Origin: a virus
Lineage: Duplodnaviria > Heunggongvirae > Uroviricota > Caudoviricetes
Strand: one strand, 5' to 3'
DNA length: 44,053 nt
Virus record (IMG/VR): IMGVR_UViG_2597489870_000002
Location: 1 to 44,053 of that record
A program made the position numbers and the translations under genes. The notes under the pieces were generated by a model, which saw only the letters and a list, made by a program, of their open reading frames with translations, had not been told where the DNA came from and made no database searches. Shown in pieces: positions 5,698 through 39,312 of the stretch (positions are counted from its first letter, which is position 1; every line of letters begins with the position of its first letter).

Positions 5698-5776
5698 GTT
5701 ACCGTTGAGGTAATGATTATGCGTATTTGGTTTGGTGTCAATAGATATGAGTTAAAAAAATTACCCTTAAGGTAAT
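5698..5776. promoter_or_regulatory. Two ATTACC-N5-GGTAAT operators flanking a putative leftward early promoter
   Basis: GTTACCGTTGAGGTAAT (5698-5714) and a perfect ATTACCCTTAAGGTAAT (5760-5776). Between them, GGTGTCAATAG (5734-5744) has a complement containing TTGACA. An ATTTGGTT box lies at 5725-5732. Confidence 0.6.
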
Positions 5777-5832: not shown

Positions 5833-6417
5833 TTATTGTTTGTTTTTTTCGTTCTGGTTGATGACAAATTCAATGTAACTTTCGATCTTTGCTTTCTCGG
5901 TTTCGGGTAACAATGCGTAGCGCGAGCGGTCATAGTTGATGGTCGCAGGGTCGTGCGGGTGAATCAGTAATTCATAGCCGTGACGCCCGAATGCGGATGC
6001 AACATTCTCCAGGGTGGAAATGGAAACGCTGACCTCATTGTTTAACAGGCGGCTGATTGTCACCTGGGCGACGCCGGATGCGCGGTGAAGTTTTCCCTGT
6101 GTTGAAAGGTCGCGGCTTTCGCTCATCCAGCGTTCCAGGTTGTGAGCCGCCAGCTGACCTATATCGCTCGGGCCGACAGGCTGAAAACCTTCCTGAGAAA
6201 GCGAGCGATCGATATCAAGCCAGTTACGGGGTTTATTGGCGGCAGCTTCAATTTTTCGCGCAACCTGGTCGCCGATAACCTTCTTGCCAAGAGCCCAGCG
6301 GTTTACCAGATTTGCCTGAGTTCCAAGTTTTTCTGCCATCCGCGTCTGAACACCATTGAATTCACGGTCGATCAAGTCGTTGAGATTTTGCCTGCGGACG
6401 TCCTGGATACTTTTCAT
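5833..6417 (-). CDS. Prophage repressor candidate with two XRE-type HTH domains and no obvious S24 peptidase domain
   Basis: 194 aa. HTH1 is QTRMAEKLGTQANLVNRWALGKK and HTH2 is LHRASGVAQVTISRLLNNEVSVSISTLENVASAF. Divergent from the cro-like gene across an operator-rich spacer. Confidence 0.7.
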   Translation of the reverse strand: MKSIQDVRRQNLNDLIDREFNGVQTRMAEKLGTQANLVNRWALGKKVIGDQVARKIEAAANKPRNWLDIDRSLSQEGFQPVGPSDIGQLAAHNLERWMSESRDLSTQGKLHRASGVAQVTISRLLNNEVSVSISTLENVASAFGRHGYELLIHPHDPATINYDRSRYALLPETEKAKIESYIEFVINQNEKNKQ

Positions 6418-6471: not shown

Positions 6472-6536
6472 ATTACCCAACAGGTAAATGCACCCCATAG
6501 GTAACTATCCTTGATTTTTGTTACCTTATGGGTGAA
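6472..6536. promoter_or_regulatory. Immunity-region operators (three palindrome copies)
   Basis: ATTACCCAACAGGTAAA (6472-6488) abuts TGCACCCCATAGGTAAC (6489-6505). GTTACCTTATGGGTGAA (6520-6536) lies between a TTGTTA -35-like hexamer and a TATTAT -10-like hexamer for the rightward gene. Confidence 0.6.
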
Positions 6537-10762: not shown

Positions 10763-11128
10763 ATGGCGCTGACGAAAAAACAACGCGCAGAGCTACGCAT
10801 GAAGTTTGGCGGTCGCTGTGCTTATTGCGGGTGCGAGCTTGGTGATAAGTGGCATGCCGACCACGTTAAGCCTGTCATTCGTTTTGATGGGAATATGCTT
10901 CACCAGGAACGTGACGATATATCAAACATGGTTCCAGCATGCCACCCATGCAATCTGCACAAGCATTGCAGTAGCCTGGAAGATTACCGGCGAATTATCG
11001 GCGATGGTCGTCGCGAGTTCCTTGTATCCGGGAAAGGAAAAGCGCTGGTTCGTATGGGATTGGTTGAAATGAAATCTGACCCAGTGGTGTTCTGGTTTGA
11101 AAAATATCAAGAAGGGGCTACGGCATGA
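10763..11128 (+). CDS. HNH endonuclease
   Basis: CAYCGCEL..WHADHVKPV...VPACHPCNLHKH. Confidence 0.85.
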   Translation: MALTKKQRAELRMKFGGRCAYCGCELGDKWHADHVKPVIRFDGNMLHQERDDISNMVPACHPCNLHKHCSSLEDYRRIIGDGRREFLVSGKGKALVRMGLVEMKSDPVVFWFEKYQEGATA

Positions 11129-15541: not shown

Positions 15542-15618
15542 TGGTGCGGCATGCAGGATTCGAACCTGCGGCCAACCGCTTAGAAGGCGGTTGCTCTATC
15601 CAACTGAGCTAATGCCAC
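15542..15618 (-). tRNA. tRNA-Arg (anticodon UCU), argU-like, with CCA encoded
   Basis: Hand-folded cloverleaf: GTGGCAT-TA-GCTC-AGTTGGATA-GAGC-A-ACCGC-CTTCTAA-GCGGT-TGGCC-GCAGG-TTCGAAT-CCTGC-ATGCCGC-A-CCA. Confidence 0.9.
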
Positions 15619-33540: not shown

Positions 33541-34233
33541 TCAGAAGAACCCTGCCTTGTCGTTGATGTACTCCGCGTGCGTCTGGATATCACGCAGGCA
33601 TTTGCTCACACCGACGATGTAGCAGAACATGGTGGTCAGTTCCGCCGCCGCGCCCGATACATCATGCCCGTCGTCCTGCAACTGGTTTAGCAGATTCATC
33701 AGCAGTGAGTTCTCCGTCAGGCCGAGAACACCAGACGGCGAGTGAATCAGGCTACGGTAGCCTGGCTTCAGTGGGGCACTGTAGGTTTTGTTCTCTATCT
33801 TCATTGCCTGCATCACTGCTGATGCTGTGGCGTTGGCTACCTGGTCGGCAACCATCTTTATGCGCTCTTCCTGCGGGAGCGAGTTTTTAATGTAGCTTCC
33901 GGTGCGGCGGATCTGAGGAAGAACCTCACCTGTAACCCATTCAAGAAATCTGAATGCTCTCGTTCCCTCAGTCATTGCCTCTTTGCAACGCAGAATAAGG
34001 ATGTAGAGACCTGATTCTGAAACGATGGATAGTTCTTGTATTCCACCAGGGGTCTGTATTGAATACAGCCCCTTTTTGTTCCAGCCTTTTTTATCAAGTT
34101 TTCTCGCTTGTGTAACATCAATATTCAAAGCATTGCACACATCTTTGGTGACAAACCAAGGTTCTCCGTCAATCATGAACATACGGATCTGGCAGGATGA
34201 CTCAAAGGAAAAGATGGAAGGTTTGGTATTCAT
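33541..34233 (-). CDS. Bro-N/KilA-N-type antirepressor
   Basis: ATG at 34233 (MNTKPSIFSFESSCQIRMFMIDGEPWFVTKDVCNALNI = BRO-N pattern). The C-terminal roughly 75 aa are paralogous to ORF 35379..35636. Confidence 0.75.
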   Translation of the reverse strand: MNTKPSIFSFESSCQIRMFMIDGEPWFVTKDVCNALNIDVTQARKLDKKGWNKKGLYSIQTPGGIQELSIVSESGLYILILRCKEAMTEGTRAFRFLEWVTGEVLPQIRRTGSYIKNSLPQEERIKMVADQVANATASAVMQAMKIENKTYSAPLKPGYRSLIHSPSGVLGLTENSLLMNLLNQLQDDGHDVSGAAAELTTMFCYIVGVSKCLRDIQTHAEYINDKAGFF

Positions 34234-34499
34234 GGCGATCACCTTTGTAGTTAGGTTAATCACCACCGCTGAGACCAATCAGATGGTGGTGAACTGTGCA
34301 GAGTTGGTCTTACCGGCTACAAAGGAACCCGGCGCACCTTTCGGTGCCCCCACACAGCCCACCATAGAATAGGTGCGCTTTACACATAAAAAAACCGCTT
34401 ATGCGGCGTATGTGCCTCTGTAGTAATCCGGGAGACCAATCCCGGCACTGGATTTTGCCAGTGCCTGATTACTATGGCACAAGAGGAGTGCGATGTAAA

Positions 34500-34609
34500 T
34501 TTACCGCAAAGGTAATGATAAGCGAGGAGAAATATCAAAATCAACCGTATTTGGTTGATGGAGTTTAACGCTTGATCACCTGAAAGCAAGATATTACCTT
34601 TAAGGTAAT
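34500..34609. promoter_or_regulatory. Two palindromes and an ATTTGGTT box in the ant / 242-aa divergent region
   Basis: TTTACCGCAAAGGTAAT (34500-34516). TCAACCGTATTTGGTTGA (34541-34558), an inverted repeat containing ATTTGGTT (34549-34556). Perfect ATTACCTTTAAGGTAAT (34593-34609). Confidence 0.55.
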
Positions 34610-34628
34610 GTTATTGTGAGGAAAAGCA

Positions 34629-35357
34629 ATGGAAGTTTTCTGGATAGTTGTTGGTGTGGTTGCGGTGATTATTTACGTTATCAACCAGAACAAGACTAAG
34701 ATCTCTGATCGTACGGTCGTTAATCAGAACAAAACGATAAAGACCGAAGATGGGGAGATAACGATTAATCGTACACAGGTGATAGACCGCACCTCCACTC
34801 AGTTTCACAAAGCTGGAGGTGATGCGCCTAATATTTCCGTACCTCCTGATTATGATAGTGCGGTAATCCAGACATATTATAAACAGCAGGAGTTAGCAAA
34901 AGAGAGGCAACTGATTCAGCCAAAGCCATTTACAGCAGAGCTGCCACCTGGTGTGTCAACGCGTCCGACATATCATGGAAGATTCCCTGGTGATGACATA
35001 TCGTCTCAGTCACCTAAAAAAGCACTTCAGGTAGTATCAGAGCCAGCAAGAATACCTTCTGTGTCGCCGCCAAAAGAAGAATCAGCTAACAGAGTTTCAA
35101 GTGGTAGCAAGCAGTGTTTGCGATGCAGAATAAACCTTCCATATGAAAAATTCAGGAAATCTTCAAAAAATCCAGATGGATTGACTAAGTGGTGTGCAAG
35201 GTGTCTCGATGGCCCAAAGAATACACGCCATATGAAGTGGTGCCCAATTTGTAATGTCCGCAGAAAACGAACCAGCTTTTACCCTAATAATCAAAATGCG
35301 GATGGCTTAATGGCATGGTGCAAAACGTGCTGGGACGAGCACAAAGCGAAACGATAG
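34629..35357 (+). CDS. Membrane-anchored protein with two C-terminal zinc-ribbon repeats
   Basis: 242 aa. N-terminal TM MEVFWIVVGVVAVIIYVI. Repeats CLRCRINLPYEKFRKSSKNPDGLTKWCARC and CPICNVRRKRTSFYPNNQNADGLMAWCKTC. Confidence 0.7.
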   Translation: MEVFWIVVGVVAVIIYVINQNKTKISDRTVVNQNKTIKTEDGEITINRTQVIDRTSTQFHKAGGDAPNISVPPDYDSAVIQTYYKQQELAKERQLIQPKPFTAELPPGVSTRPTYHGRFPGDDISSQSPKKALQVVSEPARIPSVSPPKEESANRVSSGSKQCLRCRINLPYEKFRKSSKNPDGLTKWCARCLDGPKNTRHMKWCPICNVRRKRTSFYPNNQNADGLMAWCKTCWDEHKAKR

Positions 35358-35380
35358 GCCGCTCTTGCGGCCTTTTCTTT
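35356..35380 (+). terminator. Rho-independent terminator
   Basis: AGGCCGC-TCTT-GCGGCCT followed by TTTCTTT. Confidence 0.8.
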
Positions 35381-35636
35381 ATGTGGTTTGTTTTCGTAAT
35401 TGTTCAGCACAATAGTCGAGATGTGTTTGCAGATCCTGCATAGACATCTGTGAGCTGGTGACGTAGTTAATCAGTGCAGTCAGTTCGGCAAGTGGGCCAT
35501 CGACATTAAATCCATCCTTATCGAGATCCCGGAGTAATTTCATCAAGTGCGATCCCTCCACCAGTGACCTGACGCCTCCCGGCGTGTGAATCCTTTCGGT
35601 AAATCCGTCTTCCAGTGGATAGTGATACTGCTGCAT
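35379..35636 (-). CDS. Small antirepressor-like protein, paralog of the Bro-N antirepressor C-terminal domain
   Basis: ATG at 35636 after GGGGAAGA (the track start is a TTG at 35654). About 40% identity by eye over about 77 aa: IHTPGGVRSLVEGSHLMKLLRDLDKDGFNVDGPLAELT..DLQTH versus IHSPSGVLGLTENSLLMNLLNQLQDDGHDVSGAAAELT..DIQTH. Confidence 0.7.
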   Translation of the reverse strand: MQQYHYPLEDGFTERIHTPGGVRSLVEGSHLMKLLRDLDKDGFNVDGPLAELTALINYVTSSQMSMQDLQTHLDYCAEQLRKQTT

Positions 35637-35655
35637 CTTATCTTCCCCATGCAAT

Positions 35656-35675
35656 AACTGTATATTTATACAGTA
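35656..35675. promoter_or_regulatory. LexA (SOS) box
   Basis: AACTGTATATTTATACAGTA matches 18/20 positions of TACTGTATATATATACAGTA, with CTGT-N8-ACAG intact. It lies 20-39 nt upstream of the 85-aa gene's start. Confidence 0.8.
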
Positions 35676-35711
35676 TCAAATAATTTGTTTGCTATCCAGC
35701 ACGTTTTGCGA

Positions 35712-35783
35712 ATCACCTGAAAGGTAATATCTGTTCGTATTTATGGGTTATCTATCCATATGTGGTTTTTCAGGTAATAGAAT
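35712..35783 (+). promoter_or_regulatory. Palindrome, ATGTGGTT box and -10-like element upstream of the tailspike gene
   Basis: ATCACCTGAAAGGTAAT (35712-35728). ATGTGGTT (35760-35767), N5, GGTAAT (35773-35778), overlapping TAGAAT (35778-35783). Confidence 0.55.
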
Positions 35784-36635
35784 AACCGGATATGCGGCGC
35801 AACGGGTGCTGCGACTATCTGGAGATTTAACATGACGGTCTCAACCGAAGTTGACCACAACGAATACACAGGTAACGGCGTTACGACATCATTTCCTTAT
35901 ACCTTTAGGGTTTTCAATAAATCTGATCTGGTAGTGCAGGTGATTGACCCTGACGAGAATATCACTGTGCTGGCTCTTGATACTGATTACACGGTGACGG
36001 GGGCTGGAGGATATACTGGCGGGAATGTCATCCTCACAACTGCTCTGGAGAATGGATTTCGTATTTCGATAGCACGTGAACTCCCAGTTACGCAGGAAAC
36101 CGATCTGCGCAATCAAGGCAAGTTCTTTGCAGAGGTGCATGAGGATGCTTTTGATAAGTTAACTATGCTGCTTCAACAGGTTAGAAGTTGGTTTAGTCTG
36201 GCGCTGCGCAAGCCGTCGTTTGTCGCAAACTACTATGATGCTCTTGGTAACTACATCCGCAATCTTCGTGACCCGTCACGTCCTCAGGATGCGGCCACCA
36301 AGAATTATGTCGACTCACTGGCAAGCATTAATCTGTCTAAAACGCTGAGAATGCCAGAGGCAGTACCAGAGCTTCCAAGCGCTGAGCTGAGAAAAAACAA
36401 AATTGTAGCAATGGATGATTCAGGAAATCCTATCATGGTTCTGCCTGAATCTGGTTCCGCTTCAGATGTAATGATTCAACTTGCATCAAGCAATGGTTTA
36501 AAGTTTATAGGTGATGTTCAGTCTGTTATAAAATTAAATGATGCTATCGGAAACATAGGTGATAAGATTTTTTTAAAGTCTTATGTTGAAGGTGAGAATA
36601 AAGGTGGTGGGATTCTTGTTGCTGTTGATAACTCA

Positions 36636-36696: not shown

Positions 36697-37374
36697 ATGT
36701 CCATCATTTTTAATGGACACTATCGTATGAAACACCGGACCTGGATCACTGAAGCTTTACGTCTTCACTTTGAAGAACATTTACCCCGGGTTGTGGCCGG
36801 GCGTCGCCTGGGTGTACCAAAATCAACAGTTTGTAGTATGTTCGTGCGCTTTCGGAGAGCTGGCCTTTCGTGGCCTTTGCCCGCAGGCATGTCGGAGCAG
36901 GAACTTGATGCCTGCCTTTACGGACAATTTTCCACGGTACCAGTCGTACGTCCTGAAAGCACCGTTATATCCGAAGCCCCCGTGGTAAAAAAACGTCCCC
37001 GGCGGCCCAACTTCCCTTATGAGTTTAAAATCGCCTTAGTGGAGCAGTCACTGCAGCCCGGAGCCTGTGTGGCGCAGATCGCCCGGGAAAACGGAATCAA
37101 CGATAACCTGCTCTTCAACTGGCGCCATCAATACCGGAAAGGTGGCCTGCTGCCTTCCGGAAAAAATATGCCGGCACTGCTTCCCGTGACGTTAACGCCG
37201 GAGCCGGATAATAAAATCCCGGCCCCCGCACAGGAACCAGAGCAGATAAATACACCGTCCGACAGTCTGTGTTGTGAGCTGGTTCTGCCGGCCGGAACTC
37301 TCAGGCTTAAAGGTAAACTGACGCCGGCGTTATTACAGACACTTATCCGCGAAATAAAAGGGAGCAGCCACTGA
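36697..37374 (+). CDS. tnpA: IS66-family accessory protein TnpA (orfA)
   Basis: RRPNFPYEFKIALVEQSLQPGACVAQIARENGINDNLLFNWRHQYRKG. The start is uncertain (an alternative ATG lies at 36727). Confidence 0.75.
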   Translation: MSIIFNGHYRMKHRTWITEALRLHFEEHLPRVVAGRRLGVPKSTVCSMFVRFRRAGLSWPLPAGMSEQELDACLYGQFSTVPVVRPESTVISEAPVVKKRPRRPNFPYEFKIALVEQSLQPGACVAQIARENGINDNLLFNWRHQYRKGGLLPSGKNMPALLPVTLTPEPDNKIPAPAQEPEQINTPSDSLCCELVLPAGTLRLKGKLTPALLQTLIREIKGSSH

Positions 37375-37721
37375 TGATATCTCTCCCTGCAGGTTCGCGT
37401 ATCTGGCTGGTTGCAGGTATCACCGATATGCGAAATGGCTTTAACGGCCTGGCATCAAAAGTTCAGAACGTCCTGAAGGATGACCCGTTCTCCGGACACC
37501 TGTTCATCTTCCGCGGACGCCGGGGTGACCAGATAAAAGTGTTGTGGGCTGACAGTGACGGACTGTGCCTCTTCACCAAACGCCTGGAGCGGGGCCGCTT
37601 CGTCTGGCCAGTCACCCGTGACGGCAAGGTGCACCTTACTCCGGCTCAGTTATCCATGCTTCTTGAAGGTATCAACTGGAAGCACCCGAAACGAACGGAA
37701 CGCGCTGGAATCCGCATATAA
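37374..37721 (+). CDS. tnpB: IS66-family TnpB (orfB)
   Basis: 115 aa. ..RIWLVAGITDMRNGFNGLASKVQ..DPFSGHLFIFRGRRGDQIKVLWAD is the classic IS66 orf2. ATGA-type coupling to orfA. Confidence 0.9.
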   Translation: MISLPAGSRIWLVAGITDMRNGFNGLASKVQNVLKDDPFSGHLFIFRGRRGDQIKVLWADSDGLCLFTKRLERGRFVWPVTRDGKVHLTPAQLSMLLEGINWKHPKRTERAGIRI

Positions 37722-37740
37722 CCCGTTGTAAAGTGAGGAT

Positions 37741-39312
37741 ATGGACACCTCACTTGCTCATGAGAACGCCCGCCTGCGGGCACTGTTGCAGACGCAACAG
37801 GACACCATCCGCCAGATGGCTGAATACAACCGCCTGCTCTCACAGCGGGTGGCGGCTTATGCTTCCGAAATCAACCGGCTGAAGGCGCTGGTTGCGAAAC
37901 TGCAACGTATGCAGTTCGGTAAAAGCTCAGAAAAACTTCGTGCAAAAACCGAACGGCAGATACAGGAAGCACAGGAGCGAATCAGCGCACTTCAGGAAGA
38001 AATGGCGGAAACGCTGGGTGAGCAATATGACCCGGTACTGCCATCCGCCCTGCGCCAGTCTTCAGCCCGTAAACCGTTACCGGCCTCACTTCCCCGTGAA
38101 ACCCGGGTTATCCGGCCGGAAGAGGAATGCTGTCCTGCCTGTGGTGGTGAACTCAGTTCTCTGGGATGTGATGTGTCAGAGCAACTGGAGCTTATCAGCA
38201 GCGCCTTTAAGGTTATCGAAACACAACGTCCGAAACAGGCCTGTTGCCGGTGCGACCATATCGTGCAGGCACCAGTACCTTCAAAACCCATTGCACGCAG
38301 TTATGCCGGAGCGGGGCTTCTGGCCCATGTTGTCACCGGGAAATATGCAGACCATCTGCCGTTATACCGCCAGTCAGAAATATACCGTCGTCAGGGAGTG
38401 GAGCTGAGCCGTGCCACACTGGGGCGCTGGACAGGTGCTGTTGCTGAACTGCTGGAGCCGCTGTATGACGTCCTGCGCCAGTATGTGCTGATGCCCGGTA
38501 AAGTCCATGCTGATGATATCCCCGTCCCGGTCCAGGAGCCGGGCAGCGGTAAAACCCGGACAGCCCGGCTGTGGGTCTACGTCCGTGATGACCGTAACGC
38601 CGGTTCACAGATGCCCCCGGCGGTCTGGTTCGCGTACAGTCCGGACCGGAAAGGTATCCATCCACAAAATCACCTGGCCGGTTACAGCGGTGTGCTTCAG
38701 GCCGATGCTTACGGTGGTTACCGGGCGTTATACGAATCCGGCAGAATAACGGAAGCCGCGTGTATGGCTCATGCCCGGAGAAAAATCCACGATGTGCATG
38801 CAAGAGCGCCCACCTACATCACCACGGAAGCCCTGCAGCGTATCGGTGAACTGTATGCCATCGAGGCAGAGGTCCGGGGCTGTTCAGCAGAACAGCGTCT
38901 GGCGGCAAGAAAAGCCAGAGCCGCGCCACTGATGCAGTCACTGTATGACTGGATACAGCAACAGATGAAAACACTGTCGCGTCACTCAGATACGGCAAAA
39001 GCGTTCGCATACCTGCTGAAACAGTGGGATGCACTGAACGTGTACTGCAGTAATGGCTGGGTGGAAATCGACAACAACATCGCAGAGAACGCCTTACGGG
39101 GAGTGGCCGTAGGCCGGAAAAACTGGATGTTCGCGGGTTCCGACAGCGGTGGTGAACATGCGGCGGTGTTGTACTCGCTGATCGGCACATGCCGTCTGAA
39201 CAATGTGGAGCCAGAAAAGTGGCTGCGTTACGTCATTGAACATATCCAGGACTGGCCGGCAAACCGGGTACGCGATCTGTTGCCCTGGAAAGTTGATCTG
39301 AGCTCTCAGTAA
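37741..39312 (+). CDS. tnpC: IS66-family transposase TnpC (orfC)
   Basis: 523 aa with an N-terminal leucine-zipper-like coil, a CPACGG zinc motif and a DDE-type core (..LQADAYGGY..). Confidence 0.9.

Follow-up and report, generated by a model that had tools for sequence, protein, structure and literature searches.

The virus record IMGVR_UViG_2597489870_000002 of IMG/VR, analysed here over its whole length of 44,053 nucleotides (the window), carries on its plus strand a gene for a 242-residue protein that joins an N-terminal membrane helix, a long disordered linker, and a head of two zinc modules of the type attached to phage nucleases. The predicted promoter of this gene is overlapped by a perfect palindrome, copies of which flank the repressor gene of the prophage. 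The best explanation for this arrangement, and a tentative one, is a repressor-controlled membrane tether for a cytoplasmic ligand, likely DNA, in lytic development. The gene is real and conserved, is accessory, and is so far uncharacterised. None of its parts is new, as nuclease-associated zinc modules, membrane tethers and repressor-controlled cassettes are all known; their combination constitutes an uncharacterised family.

The gene and its family

The open reading frame (ORF, 34629–35357) is present as given in a preliminary description of this DNA, which was made from the letters alone, and is annotated in RefSeq as a hypothetical protein (WP_000451762.1, ETEC_RS30685). Its sequence is 100% identical in enterotoxigenic Escherichia coli (ETEC) H10407/SEC470. 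The protein matches PHROG 6762 (function unknown) over its full length, with residues 1–242 aligned to profile positions 1–242 of 242 (E = 2.5e-147). The homologues form 33 clusters (at 90% identity) that are 38–93% identical to the 242-residue protein, and the sources named for them are Serratia, Providencia, Citrobacter, Enterobacter, Salmonella, Pectobacterium, Buttiauxella and Superficieibacter. In an exhaustive profile search, 1738 proteins reach E ≤ 0.001 and 25 of these reach E ≤ 1e-30; the broader relatives are present in many Enterobacterales, Pasteurellaceae and Neisseria. Homologous loci were taken from IMG/VR (79) and from a scan of genome contigs (2). Residue conservation is given here for an alignment of 30 homologues, and architectures were counted over 201 retrieved relatives.

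No match to the protein is found in NCBIfam, and a literature search found no paper on the PHROG 6762-type family. The family has neither a Pfam family nor a name, and even in the original record of phage TL-2011b the gene is uncalled, being present as a misc_feature alone (the coordinates listed with the gene of the window are L001 5973–7061). The locus tags of the gene are out of series in both H10407 (ETEC_RS30685) and SEC470 (DP32_RS29595), which suggests that the gene call is a later addition to the annotation of these genomes.

Predicted structure of the zinc head

The C-terminal domain (residues 158–242) contains two copies of the motif C-x2-C-x8-F-x7-DG-x3-WC-x2-C. Such a duplicated Cys pattern had been described earlier with a first spacer of 9–13 residues; both copies are real, and the actual spacer of 8 lies just outside that range. 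The four Cys residues of the first module (C163, C166, C189 and C192) are invariant (30/30 homologues), and those of the second (C205, C208, C231 and C234) are kept in at least 90% of the homologues, one of which (P0033) stops short of this module.

The AlphaFold2 model of the domain has predicted local distance difference test (pLDDT) values above 90, whether the full-length protein or the head alone is modelled. Each module consists of a knuckle, followed by a β-hairpin and a helix, and the second Cys pair (C189/C192 and C231/C234) sits where the strand ends and the helix (residues 190–194 and 232–241) starts. The modelled zinc modules are of the treble-clef or ββα arrangement. A classical zinc ribbon, with both Cys pairs on β-turn knuckles, does not fit the models, in which the second pair is at the strand-helix junction. 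The earlier assignment to the zinc ribbons of HNH-associated proteins is therefore retained for its kinship, as the modules match those of HNH proteins and endonuclease VII, and is dropped for its fold. The linker between the two units (GPKNTxHxKWCP) is conserved and confidently modelled, and the two modules therefore probably form one rigid body.

A Foldseek search against predicted viral structures (BFVD) gives 42 matches at E ≤ 1e-3, the best with an E value of 1e-7. Most of the named matches are HNH proteins, ββα-Me restriction endonucleases, endonuclease VII, and Stc1-domain proteins of phages and giant viruses. The scaffold of such HNH or His-Me proteins, a Cys4 structural zinc site on a β-hairpin and a helix, is found here as well. 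Moreover, PHROG profiles of endonuclease VII, HNH and Lar-like proteins match with E values from 2.5e-11 to 2e-5, and these matches are confined to the N-terminal, non-catalytic parts of the profiles. Among solved structures, a sequence search gives a weak match to the N-terminus of PacI alone (E = 0.11–0.48).

The catalytic residues of these nucleases are missing. There is no match to Pfam HNH or Endonuclease_7 even at E ≤ 10, and no catalytic His/Asn pair among the conserved columns of the alignment. The residue that follows each second CxxC is Leu or Trp, not Asn, and the hairpin has no conserved His. An active HNH nuclease is rejected on these grounds. Since no HNH or endonuclease VII catalytic motif is present, the head is read, from the alignment and the model, as a non-catalytic binding module that derives from a nuclease-associated zinc finger, and not as an enzyme.

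Two further candidates were considered for the head and rejected. Kinship with the phage's own HNH gene (10763–11128) is given a probability of 0.2% by hhalign. A literal H-x3-C-x2-C motif (H201-MKW-C205-PI-C208) recalls the ZAS anti-sigma factors, but the fold is a β-hairpin or treble clef. C205 and C208 are paired with C231 and C234 in the model, unlike in the helical anti-sigma domain, and there is no match to zf-HC2 or anti-sigma families of Pfam at E ≤ 10.

The zinc domain is strongly basic, with an isoelectric point (pI) of 9.9 and 20 Lys and Arg residues as against 6 Asp and Glu residues. Several of its Lys and Arg residues are near-invariant, among them an RRKR run. The basic character of the head would favour nucleic acid as the ligand, and we infer that the head binds nucleic acid.

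A protein ligand has to be weighed here, because Stc1 (PF12898) is the sole Pfam family that matches the protein. The match, at 19.5 bits, is below the gathering threshold of 24.8 bits and covers module 1 alone (profile positions 52–83). Several relatives exceed the threshold (the close relatives P0183, with 26.6 bits, and P0069, with 25.8 bits, and multi-repeat relatives with 56–60 bits), and the eight Cys residues in two tandem sites that characterise the Pfam domain are present in the 242-residue protein. The product could then be a membrane adaptor whose Stc1/LIM-type head sequesters a host or phage cytoplasmic protein, for example a defence nuclease, a regulator, or a cell-division or replication factor, and would serve anti-defence or host takeover on induction, by a logic comparable to that of icd in the immI operon of phage P1. 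A fusion of a DnaJ domain to tandem zinc modules in one relative (P0104) suggests that the head could be a targeting module for a protein machine, and the gene lies between two antirepressor modules with which it has its regulation in common (see below). On the other hand, the nearest relatives in both structure and sequence are modules attached to nucleases, the pI and the near-invariant RRKR and Lys residues fit a protein ligand poorly, and the solved structure of Stc1 (2luy) gives no significant match (E = 5.9). The gene neighbourhood indicates no partner beyond antirepressors of varying type. An adaptor of this kind is a possibility of some weight, and on the whole an unlikely one.

The membrane-attached proteins stand apart among the relatives. 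A hydrophobic N-terminal segment is found in 87 of the 201; exactly two modules are present in 61 of these 87, and more than two in none. The soluble relatives have 1–8 tandem modules, in some cases beside helicase, HEAT or helix-turn-helix (HTH) domains. As no relative with the hydrophobic segment has more than two modules, the tethered form appears to be a distinct, fixed architecture.

Other combinations are seen as well. In addition to the DnaJ fusion, one module precedes a bona fide HNH domain in P0199, and a relative from Neisseria (P0192) has one module behind a transmembrane (TM) helix. In large relatives (P0049 and P0062 are listed with them), arrays of as many as 10 matched repeats accompany helicase/HEAT domains or an HTH domain at the C-terminus. 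From its distribution, the zinc module appears to behave as a widely reused targeting module.

The operator and probable control of the gene

The palindrome upstream of the gene, already noted in the preliminary description, is perfect and far from chance. The 17-mer has 17 matches on the two strands with no more than 3 mismatches, where 0.09 are expected. In the form ATTACC-N5-GGTAAT with at most 2 mismatches, 16 sites are found in the window as against 1.5 expected by chance, and about 13 of them are credible (5698, 5760, 6472, 6857, 8803, 8865, 12574, 15882, 33460, 34500, 34593, 35712 and 40849). The sites at 5698 and 5760 are located between the HTH repressor gene (5833–6417, minus strand) and the leftward early operon, while that at 6472, together with further degenerate copies, is located between the repressor gene and a cro-like gene. 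Other copies precede genes of the replication region, the terminase gene, the portal operon, the tail fibre gene and the lysis cassette. As these sites flank the HTH repressor gene, ATTACC-N5-GGTAAT is taken to be the immunity operator. The genome paper on epsilon15 reportedly describes an ATTACC...GGTAAT operator. Neither the operator motif nor the transcriptomes of lysogens of epsilon15/phiV10 type are the subject of any paper found in a literature search.

The promoter hexamers are recognised from their conservation across lineages. TTGAnn is found exactly 17 nucleotides (nt) upstream of TACCTT or TAACCT in 7 of 8 diverged lineages, and the spacer sequences differ. The predicted −10 hexamer is inside the left arm of the operator, and the palindrome ends 19 nt ahead of the ATG, which begins a conserved N-terminus. 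With so little room, the transcription start has to be in the palindrome or farther upstream, and a protein that occupies the palindrome can act only negatively. The palindrome as an upstream activator site is rejected for the same short distance to the start codon. As the operator covers the −10 hexamer and the presumed start site, the gene is expected to be off in the prophage state. Most likely, it would be kept off in the lysogen by the prophage repressor and be turned on after infection or induction.

This arrangement recurs in homologous loci of other genera. A site of the operator family is centred 25–41 nt upstream of the ATG of the homologue in 9 of 15 diverged loci, and the motif is enriched within most of these 9. 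In the Providencia lineage, the gene is preceded by the palindrome ATTAACC-N5-GGTTAAT, and the motif is not enriched in the late region of that prophage. The second operator in front of the gene of the window could cooperate with the first by looping.

Two other sequence elements recur. A second palindrome, GTGACATGTCAC, is located about 55–70 nt upstream of the ATG of homologues in Citrobacter-, Enterobacter- and Superficieibacter-type loci (L011 and L066–L071), where it adjoins the −35 hexamer; it is absent from the window, and its spacing is unlike that of a CRP site. A box with the sequence (A/T)TATGTGGTT has 7 copies with at most 1 mismatch, all on the plus strand, where 2.6 are expected, and none of 100 shuffles reaches 7. 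Six of these copies are of interest (6882, 8851, 15940, 35379, 35758 and 40899; the seventh is at 879), and 5 of the 6 sit 25–58 nt downstream of an operator, ahead of early, late, tail-fibre or lysis genes. The boxes are often followed by GGTAAT(A/G)AT, and one copy is directly past the terminator of the ORF. They may be an activator site or form a promoter class of their own.

The gene has its own terminator, as had been proposed, with a 7-bp stem (6 G-C pairs) and a T-run, which starts inside the stop codon. Together with the separate promoter, this gives the gene a moron-like autonomy that would suit a defence function expressed in the lysogen, either superinfection exclusion, as by SieA of phage P22, or abortive infection, in which the TM helices would depolarise the membrane once the head senses foreign DNA, as PdpSau of Staphylococcus aureus. 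The slot that the gene occupies, flanked by ejection-protein and tailspike genes, is where P22 has sieA/immI (PMC10883804), and the N-terminal membrane helix and positively charged cytoplasmic C-terminus are as in PdpSau (PMC10127798). The TM helix, which contains Gly, is strongly conserved, and there is a weak match to the 'Sie-like' PHROG 8545 (E = 0.11). This match, however, is not significant and covers only residues 4–58, the hydrophobic N-terminus, and the defence models of PADLOC-DB 2.0 give 0 families at E ≤ 1 for the protein. Moreover, with an immunity-type operator over its −10 hexamer and start site, the gene would be expected to be repressed in a lysogen. Exclusion by DNA capture at the membrane, as suggested in the preliminary description, is thus a poor fit where it is to act in a lysogen, and lysogen-expressed defence in general is doubtful.

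Membrane anchor, linker and topology

The protein has a single peak of Kyte-Doolittle hydropathy (residues 1–19), and AlphaFold2 predicts a helix for residues 3–22 with a pLDDT of about 90. The lone N-terminal TM helix recognised earlier is thereby confirmed at the level of prediction. Conservation differs greatly along the chain. The mean identity is 75% for residues 1–22, the TM helix (with W5, G9 and N21 conserved), 60% for the juxtamembrane residues 23–58 (with T39 and G42 invariant), 16% for the linker (residues 59–157, which ranges from 56 to 99 residues in the family), and 70% for the zinc domain. That the TM helix and the hairpin after it are so strongly conserved implies a role beyond passive anchoring, and suggests oligomerisation or a specific membrane partner.

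The juxtamembrane β-hairpin (residues 29–52) is modelled with low confidence (pLDDT about 50), and may be an oligomerisation or partner-binding element. An Asn/Thr/Ile-rich repeat had been described for this part of the protein. NQNKT does occur twice in the E. coli protein, but the second copy is THNRT, RQEKT or RQRDT in homologues, and it is the hairpin that is kept, not the repeat. The Pro/Ser character of the linker holds, with 14 Pro and 11 Ser residues and predicted disorder; a short helix (residues 77–93) in it is weakly conserved.

Nearly all homologues start with the tail 'ME'. In all 30, the TM helix has no basic residue ahead of it and is followed by K22, K24, R28 and K35. The positive-inside rule then places the zinc domain in the cytoplasm, in an N-out/C-in topology with 2–3 residues outside the membrane. 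A Cys4 zinc site needs a cytoplasmic location. The membrane tether with non-periplasmic Cys repeats that was envisaged in the preliminary description thus agrees with the predicted topology in 30/30 homologues.

This topology also bears on the suggestion that the protein is a membrane-sequestered regulator, whose zinc head would be freed for DNA by cleavage in or near the TM helix. A DNA-binding-type head on a long flexible linker and a helix-weakening Gly in the TM helix would be compatible with it. However, with 2–3 external residues and no periplasmic sensor a signal could not be received, and the predicted orientation is opposite to that of the substrates of RseP-type site-2 cleavage. The head, in addition, is not a sequence-specific type of DNA-binding domain, and a TM helix so highly conserved would rather have a function of its own in the membrane. 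No feature thus speaks for proteolytic release as such, and this suggestion is very unlikely to be correct. A periplasmic, disulfide-bonded Cys-rich domain that acts on incoming phage (N-in/C-out) is scarcely credible: a lone N-terminal hydrophobic segment could in principle be a signal anchor, but every homologue has no basic residue before it and 4 Lys/Arg residues within 16 residues after it, and the nuclease zinc sites to which the CxxC...CxxC modules are homologous are cytoplasmic.

Neighbourhood of the gene

The window is a complete prophage at guaA, with the integrase gene at position 1 and the lysis cassette near 42.7 kb. The positions of the features discussed here are given in Table 1.

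Table 1. Sequence features of the putative membrane-tether gene and its surroundings in the window
Feature	Position	Strand	Basis or remark
Second operator TTTACCGCAAAGGTAAT, 1 mismatch, 93 bp from first	34500–34516		motif scan
−35 hexamer TTGATC (inferred)	34572–34577	+	conservation across lineages
Operator ATTACCTTTAAGGTAAT (ATTACCTT-T-AAGGTAAT), perfect palindrome	34593–34609		motif scan
−10 hexamer TACCTT (TAnnnT; inferred), inside operator left arm	34595–34600	+	conservation across lineages
Shine-Dalgarno sequence GAGGA, 6 nt ahead of ATG	34618–34622	+	direct reading
Coding sequence, 242 residues and stop codon	34629–35357	+	WP_000451762.1, ETEC_RS30685, PHROG 6762
TM helix, residues 3–22, predicted N-out/C-in	34635–34694	+	hydropathy, AlphaFold2, alignment
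Basic juxtamembrane segment, residues 23–58, predicted β-hairpin 29–52	34695–34802	+	alignment, AlphaFold2
Disordered Pro/Ser-rich linker, residues 59–157	34803–35099	+	AlphaFold2, alignment
Zinc module 1, ligands C163, C166, C189, C192	35100–35219	+	alignment, AlphaFold2, fold search
Zinc module 2 (C205, C208, C231, C234) and basic C-terminal helix	35220–35354	+	alignment, AlphaFold2, fold search
Intrinsic terminator	35356–35383	+	AGGCCGC-tctt-GCGGCCT (35356–35373), then TTTCTTT
BRO-N antirepressor gene	33541–34233	−	divergent from ORF
C4 antisense RNA	34369–34282	−	Rfam, 78.6 bits
isrK small RNA	34464–34388	−	Rfam, 73 bits
85-residue gene, epsilon15 gp19 / phiV10 p24 homologue	35379–35636	−	downstream of ORF, convergent
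Near-consensus LexA box, CTGTATATTTATACAG / aaCTGTATATTTATACAGta	35658–35673	−	22 nt upstream of 85-residue gene

The gene is divergent from an antirepressor gene of BRO-N type, in agreement with the earlier reading of this region. The Hfq-binding small RNA isrK and the C4 antisense RNA are located between the two genes, directly upstream of the BRO-N gene. A promoter-like sequence on the minus strand (TTTACA-17-CATAGT) puts a transcription start at the 5′ end of isrK, and the second operator overlaps or adjoins the leftward promoters of isrK, C4 and the antirepressor. An isrK/C4 pair is also found 0.9–2.4 kb from the homologous gene, on the same strand, in 5 of 11 other loci searched. This isrK-C4-BRO-N arrangement is a control cassette like immI of P1 or isrK of Gifsy-1, in a podovirus; the 'terminator' annotated at the equivalent place in phiV10 is the isrK terminator.

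Over its C-terminal 74 residues, the BRO antirepressor has 42% identity (E = 1e-15) to the 85-residue product of the convergent gene downstream. The LexA box makes this gene a candidate for an SOS-inducible mini-antirepressor of the kind of Tum or GfoA. With the BRO-N gene upstream and the BRO-like gene downstream, the ORF therefore sits between two antirepressor modules, in an induction-control region.

The closest isolated phage is TL-2011b, an epsilon15/phiV10-like podovirus of Uetakevirus type, with 95% identity over 34300–35700. Three segments compared within 34282–35831 are 100% identical to ETEC H10407/SEC470. Neither phiV10 nor ZX5 has the ORF, and most isolated relatives lack it too. 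Among complete E. coli genomes, 129 have it, while the flanking mini-antirepressor/tail-fibre leader segment is present in 531, so that about a quarter of the Uetakevirus-like prophages in such genomes carry it, including that of the reference strain ETEC H10407. In Serratia prophages, the cassette is found at another position and orientation within the accessory region. The gene, with its own promoter, operator and terminator, is well supported as a self-contained accessory cassette of epsilon15/phiV10-like temperate podoviruses.

In phage EC.W1-9 (L092 2827–3793), the slot between isrK/C4 and the gp19-like gene is occupied by two unrelated ORFs, which match PHROG 9503 and PHROG 1651 (both function unknown) and lie behind an operator-like TTTACCCTAGAGGTAGT. 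As the slot holds different ORFs preceded by an operator-like site in this phage, it is read as a putative cargo-exchange site for operator-controlled cassettes.

Elsewhere in the window, an IS66-family element (tnpA, tnpB and an ISCro1-type transposase; 36697–39300) splits the tail fibre gene that starts at 35832, the 5′ part of which is a pseudogene according to the annotation pipeline PGAP. A tRNA gene (15545–15618, minus strand), which scores 71 bits against the Rfam tRNA model and is labelled tRNA-Arg in RefSeq, is located between the terminase region and the portal operon.

Proposed role

For a repressor-controlled membrane tether, the following course of events would be expected. The prophage repressor on the operator would shut the gene off in the lysogen, and transcription would take place early after infection, or once antirepressors inactivate the repressor. 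The product would be a single-pass protein of the inner membrane with its zinc head on a flexible linker in the cytoplasm, and the head would hold a cytoplasmic ligand at the inner membrane face during lytic development. DNA would be the most likely ligand because the head is basic and of nuclease-associated ancestry. The tether could serve early exclusion, whereby competing incoming DNA is kept from use, with a timing as for Imm of T4. Alternatively, the phage's own DNA could be organised at the membrane, as by p16.7 of phi29. The TM helix and hairpin would also oligomerise, or contact a specific membrane partner.

Several points weigh against this explanation. No recognisable operator is found in 6 of the 15 diverged homologue loci, and a generic search for recurring palindromes upstream of the homologues in lineages without an ATTACC-type site found none. 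The −10 hexamer TACCTT is weak, and a standard promoter scan, with a stricter consensus, misses the promoter. The operator motif is found ahead of late operons too, so another regulator could be involved. With respect to the ligand, Stc1 itself is a protein-protein adaptor, so the head could hold a protein instead of DNA, and a non-specific DNA binder would be swamped by the host chromosome. Finally, the prophage copy in H10407 is probably defective: as its tail fibre gene is split by IS66, infectious particles are not expected.

A wider proposal, and a rather speculative one, is that the protein belongs to an unrecognised class of early, repressor-controlled tethers in temperate podoviruses of Enterobacterales, made from nuclease-dead HNH-type zinc modules and holding DNA at the membrane. 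Such tethers could capture rival genomes at entry, as a lytic-cycle exclusion, or be the Gram-negative counterpart of phi29 p16.7, with the conserved TM helix and hairpin as an oligomeric platform or as a dock on the injection conduit.

With a binding module of nuclease origin on a ZipA-like tether, and under the direct control of a phage operator, the protein makes a good experimental target. Should DNA be the ligand of the head, the tether would offer a phage a new and simple means of acting on DNA at the membrane; with a protein as ligand, it would be a candidate factor of anti-defence or host takeover. The compact region around the gene, with its dispersed operators, isrK, C4, BRO antirepressor and LexA-boxed mini-antirepressor, could in addition be a model for antirepressor-based induction in podoviruses.

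Comparison with known systems

The zinc modules of nucleases, such as the non-catalytic β4-α2 repeat of Hpy99I, the N-terminal Cys4 site of PacI and those of phage and giant-virus HNH proteins, have the same Cys4 knuckle-plus-helix and motif as the protein described here. In comparison, this protein has no catalytic His/Asn and no nuclease domain, is membrane-anchored, and always has two modules. The tandem eight-Cys arrangement is also found in Stc1 of Schizosaccharomyces pombe (PF12898, 2luy), which differs in being a eukaryotic, soluble protein-protein adaptor in RNA interference and heterochromatin.

In E. coli ZipA, an N-terminal N-out/C-in anchor, of which very little lies outside, is followed by a charged juxtamembrane region, a long, flexible, Pro-rich linker and a globular head at the C-terminus, which binds FtsZ. 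The predicted architecture of the present protein, a tether for a cytoplasmic ligand, is the same, and this is an analogy for which no homology is claimed. The head of ZipA has another fold and binds FtsZ, and no similarity in sequence was found in any search run here.

In phage P1, the C1 operators are dispersed over the genome, and the immI operon consists of c4, icd and ant. The window resembles P1 in its many dispersed operators for separate operons and in the C4 RNA upstream of an antirepressor. The operator sequence is different, being a symmetric 17-mer here, and the window comes from a podovirus and has the isrK small RNA in addition. No P1 homologue of the present protein was found, as examined through PHROG only.

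The p16.7 protein of phi29 is an early membrane protein with an N-terminal TM segment and a cytoplasmic domain that binds DNA and the terminal protein (PMC4974454). Its function is to bring replicating phage DNA to the membrane (PMC4974454, citing Serna-Rico et al. 2003). It differs from the present protein, for which DNA binding is predicted, in its unrelated, zinc-free DNA-binding fold, its Gram-positive host and the protein-primed replication that it serves.

SieA of P22 is an inner-membrane protein encoded in the immI/ejection-protein-tailspike region (PMC10883804), and in PdpSau of S. aureus a membrane helix at the N-terminus is combined with a basic C-terminus in the cytoplasm (PMC10127798). 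Both are inner-membrane accessory proteins of phages, as is predicted for the present protein, and no significant similarity of SieA or PdpSau type was found for it in the PHROG and PADLOC searches. There is one clear difference in their control: SieA and PdpSau are expressed from the prophage, whereas the present gene has a repressor-type operator over its promoter.

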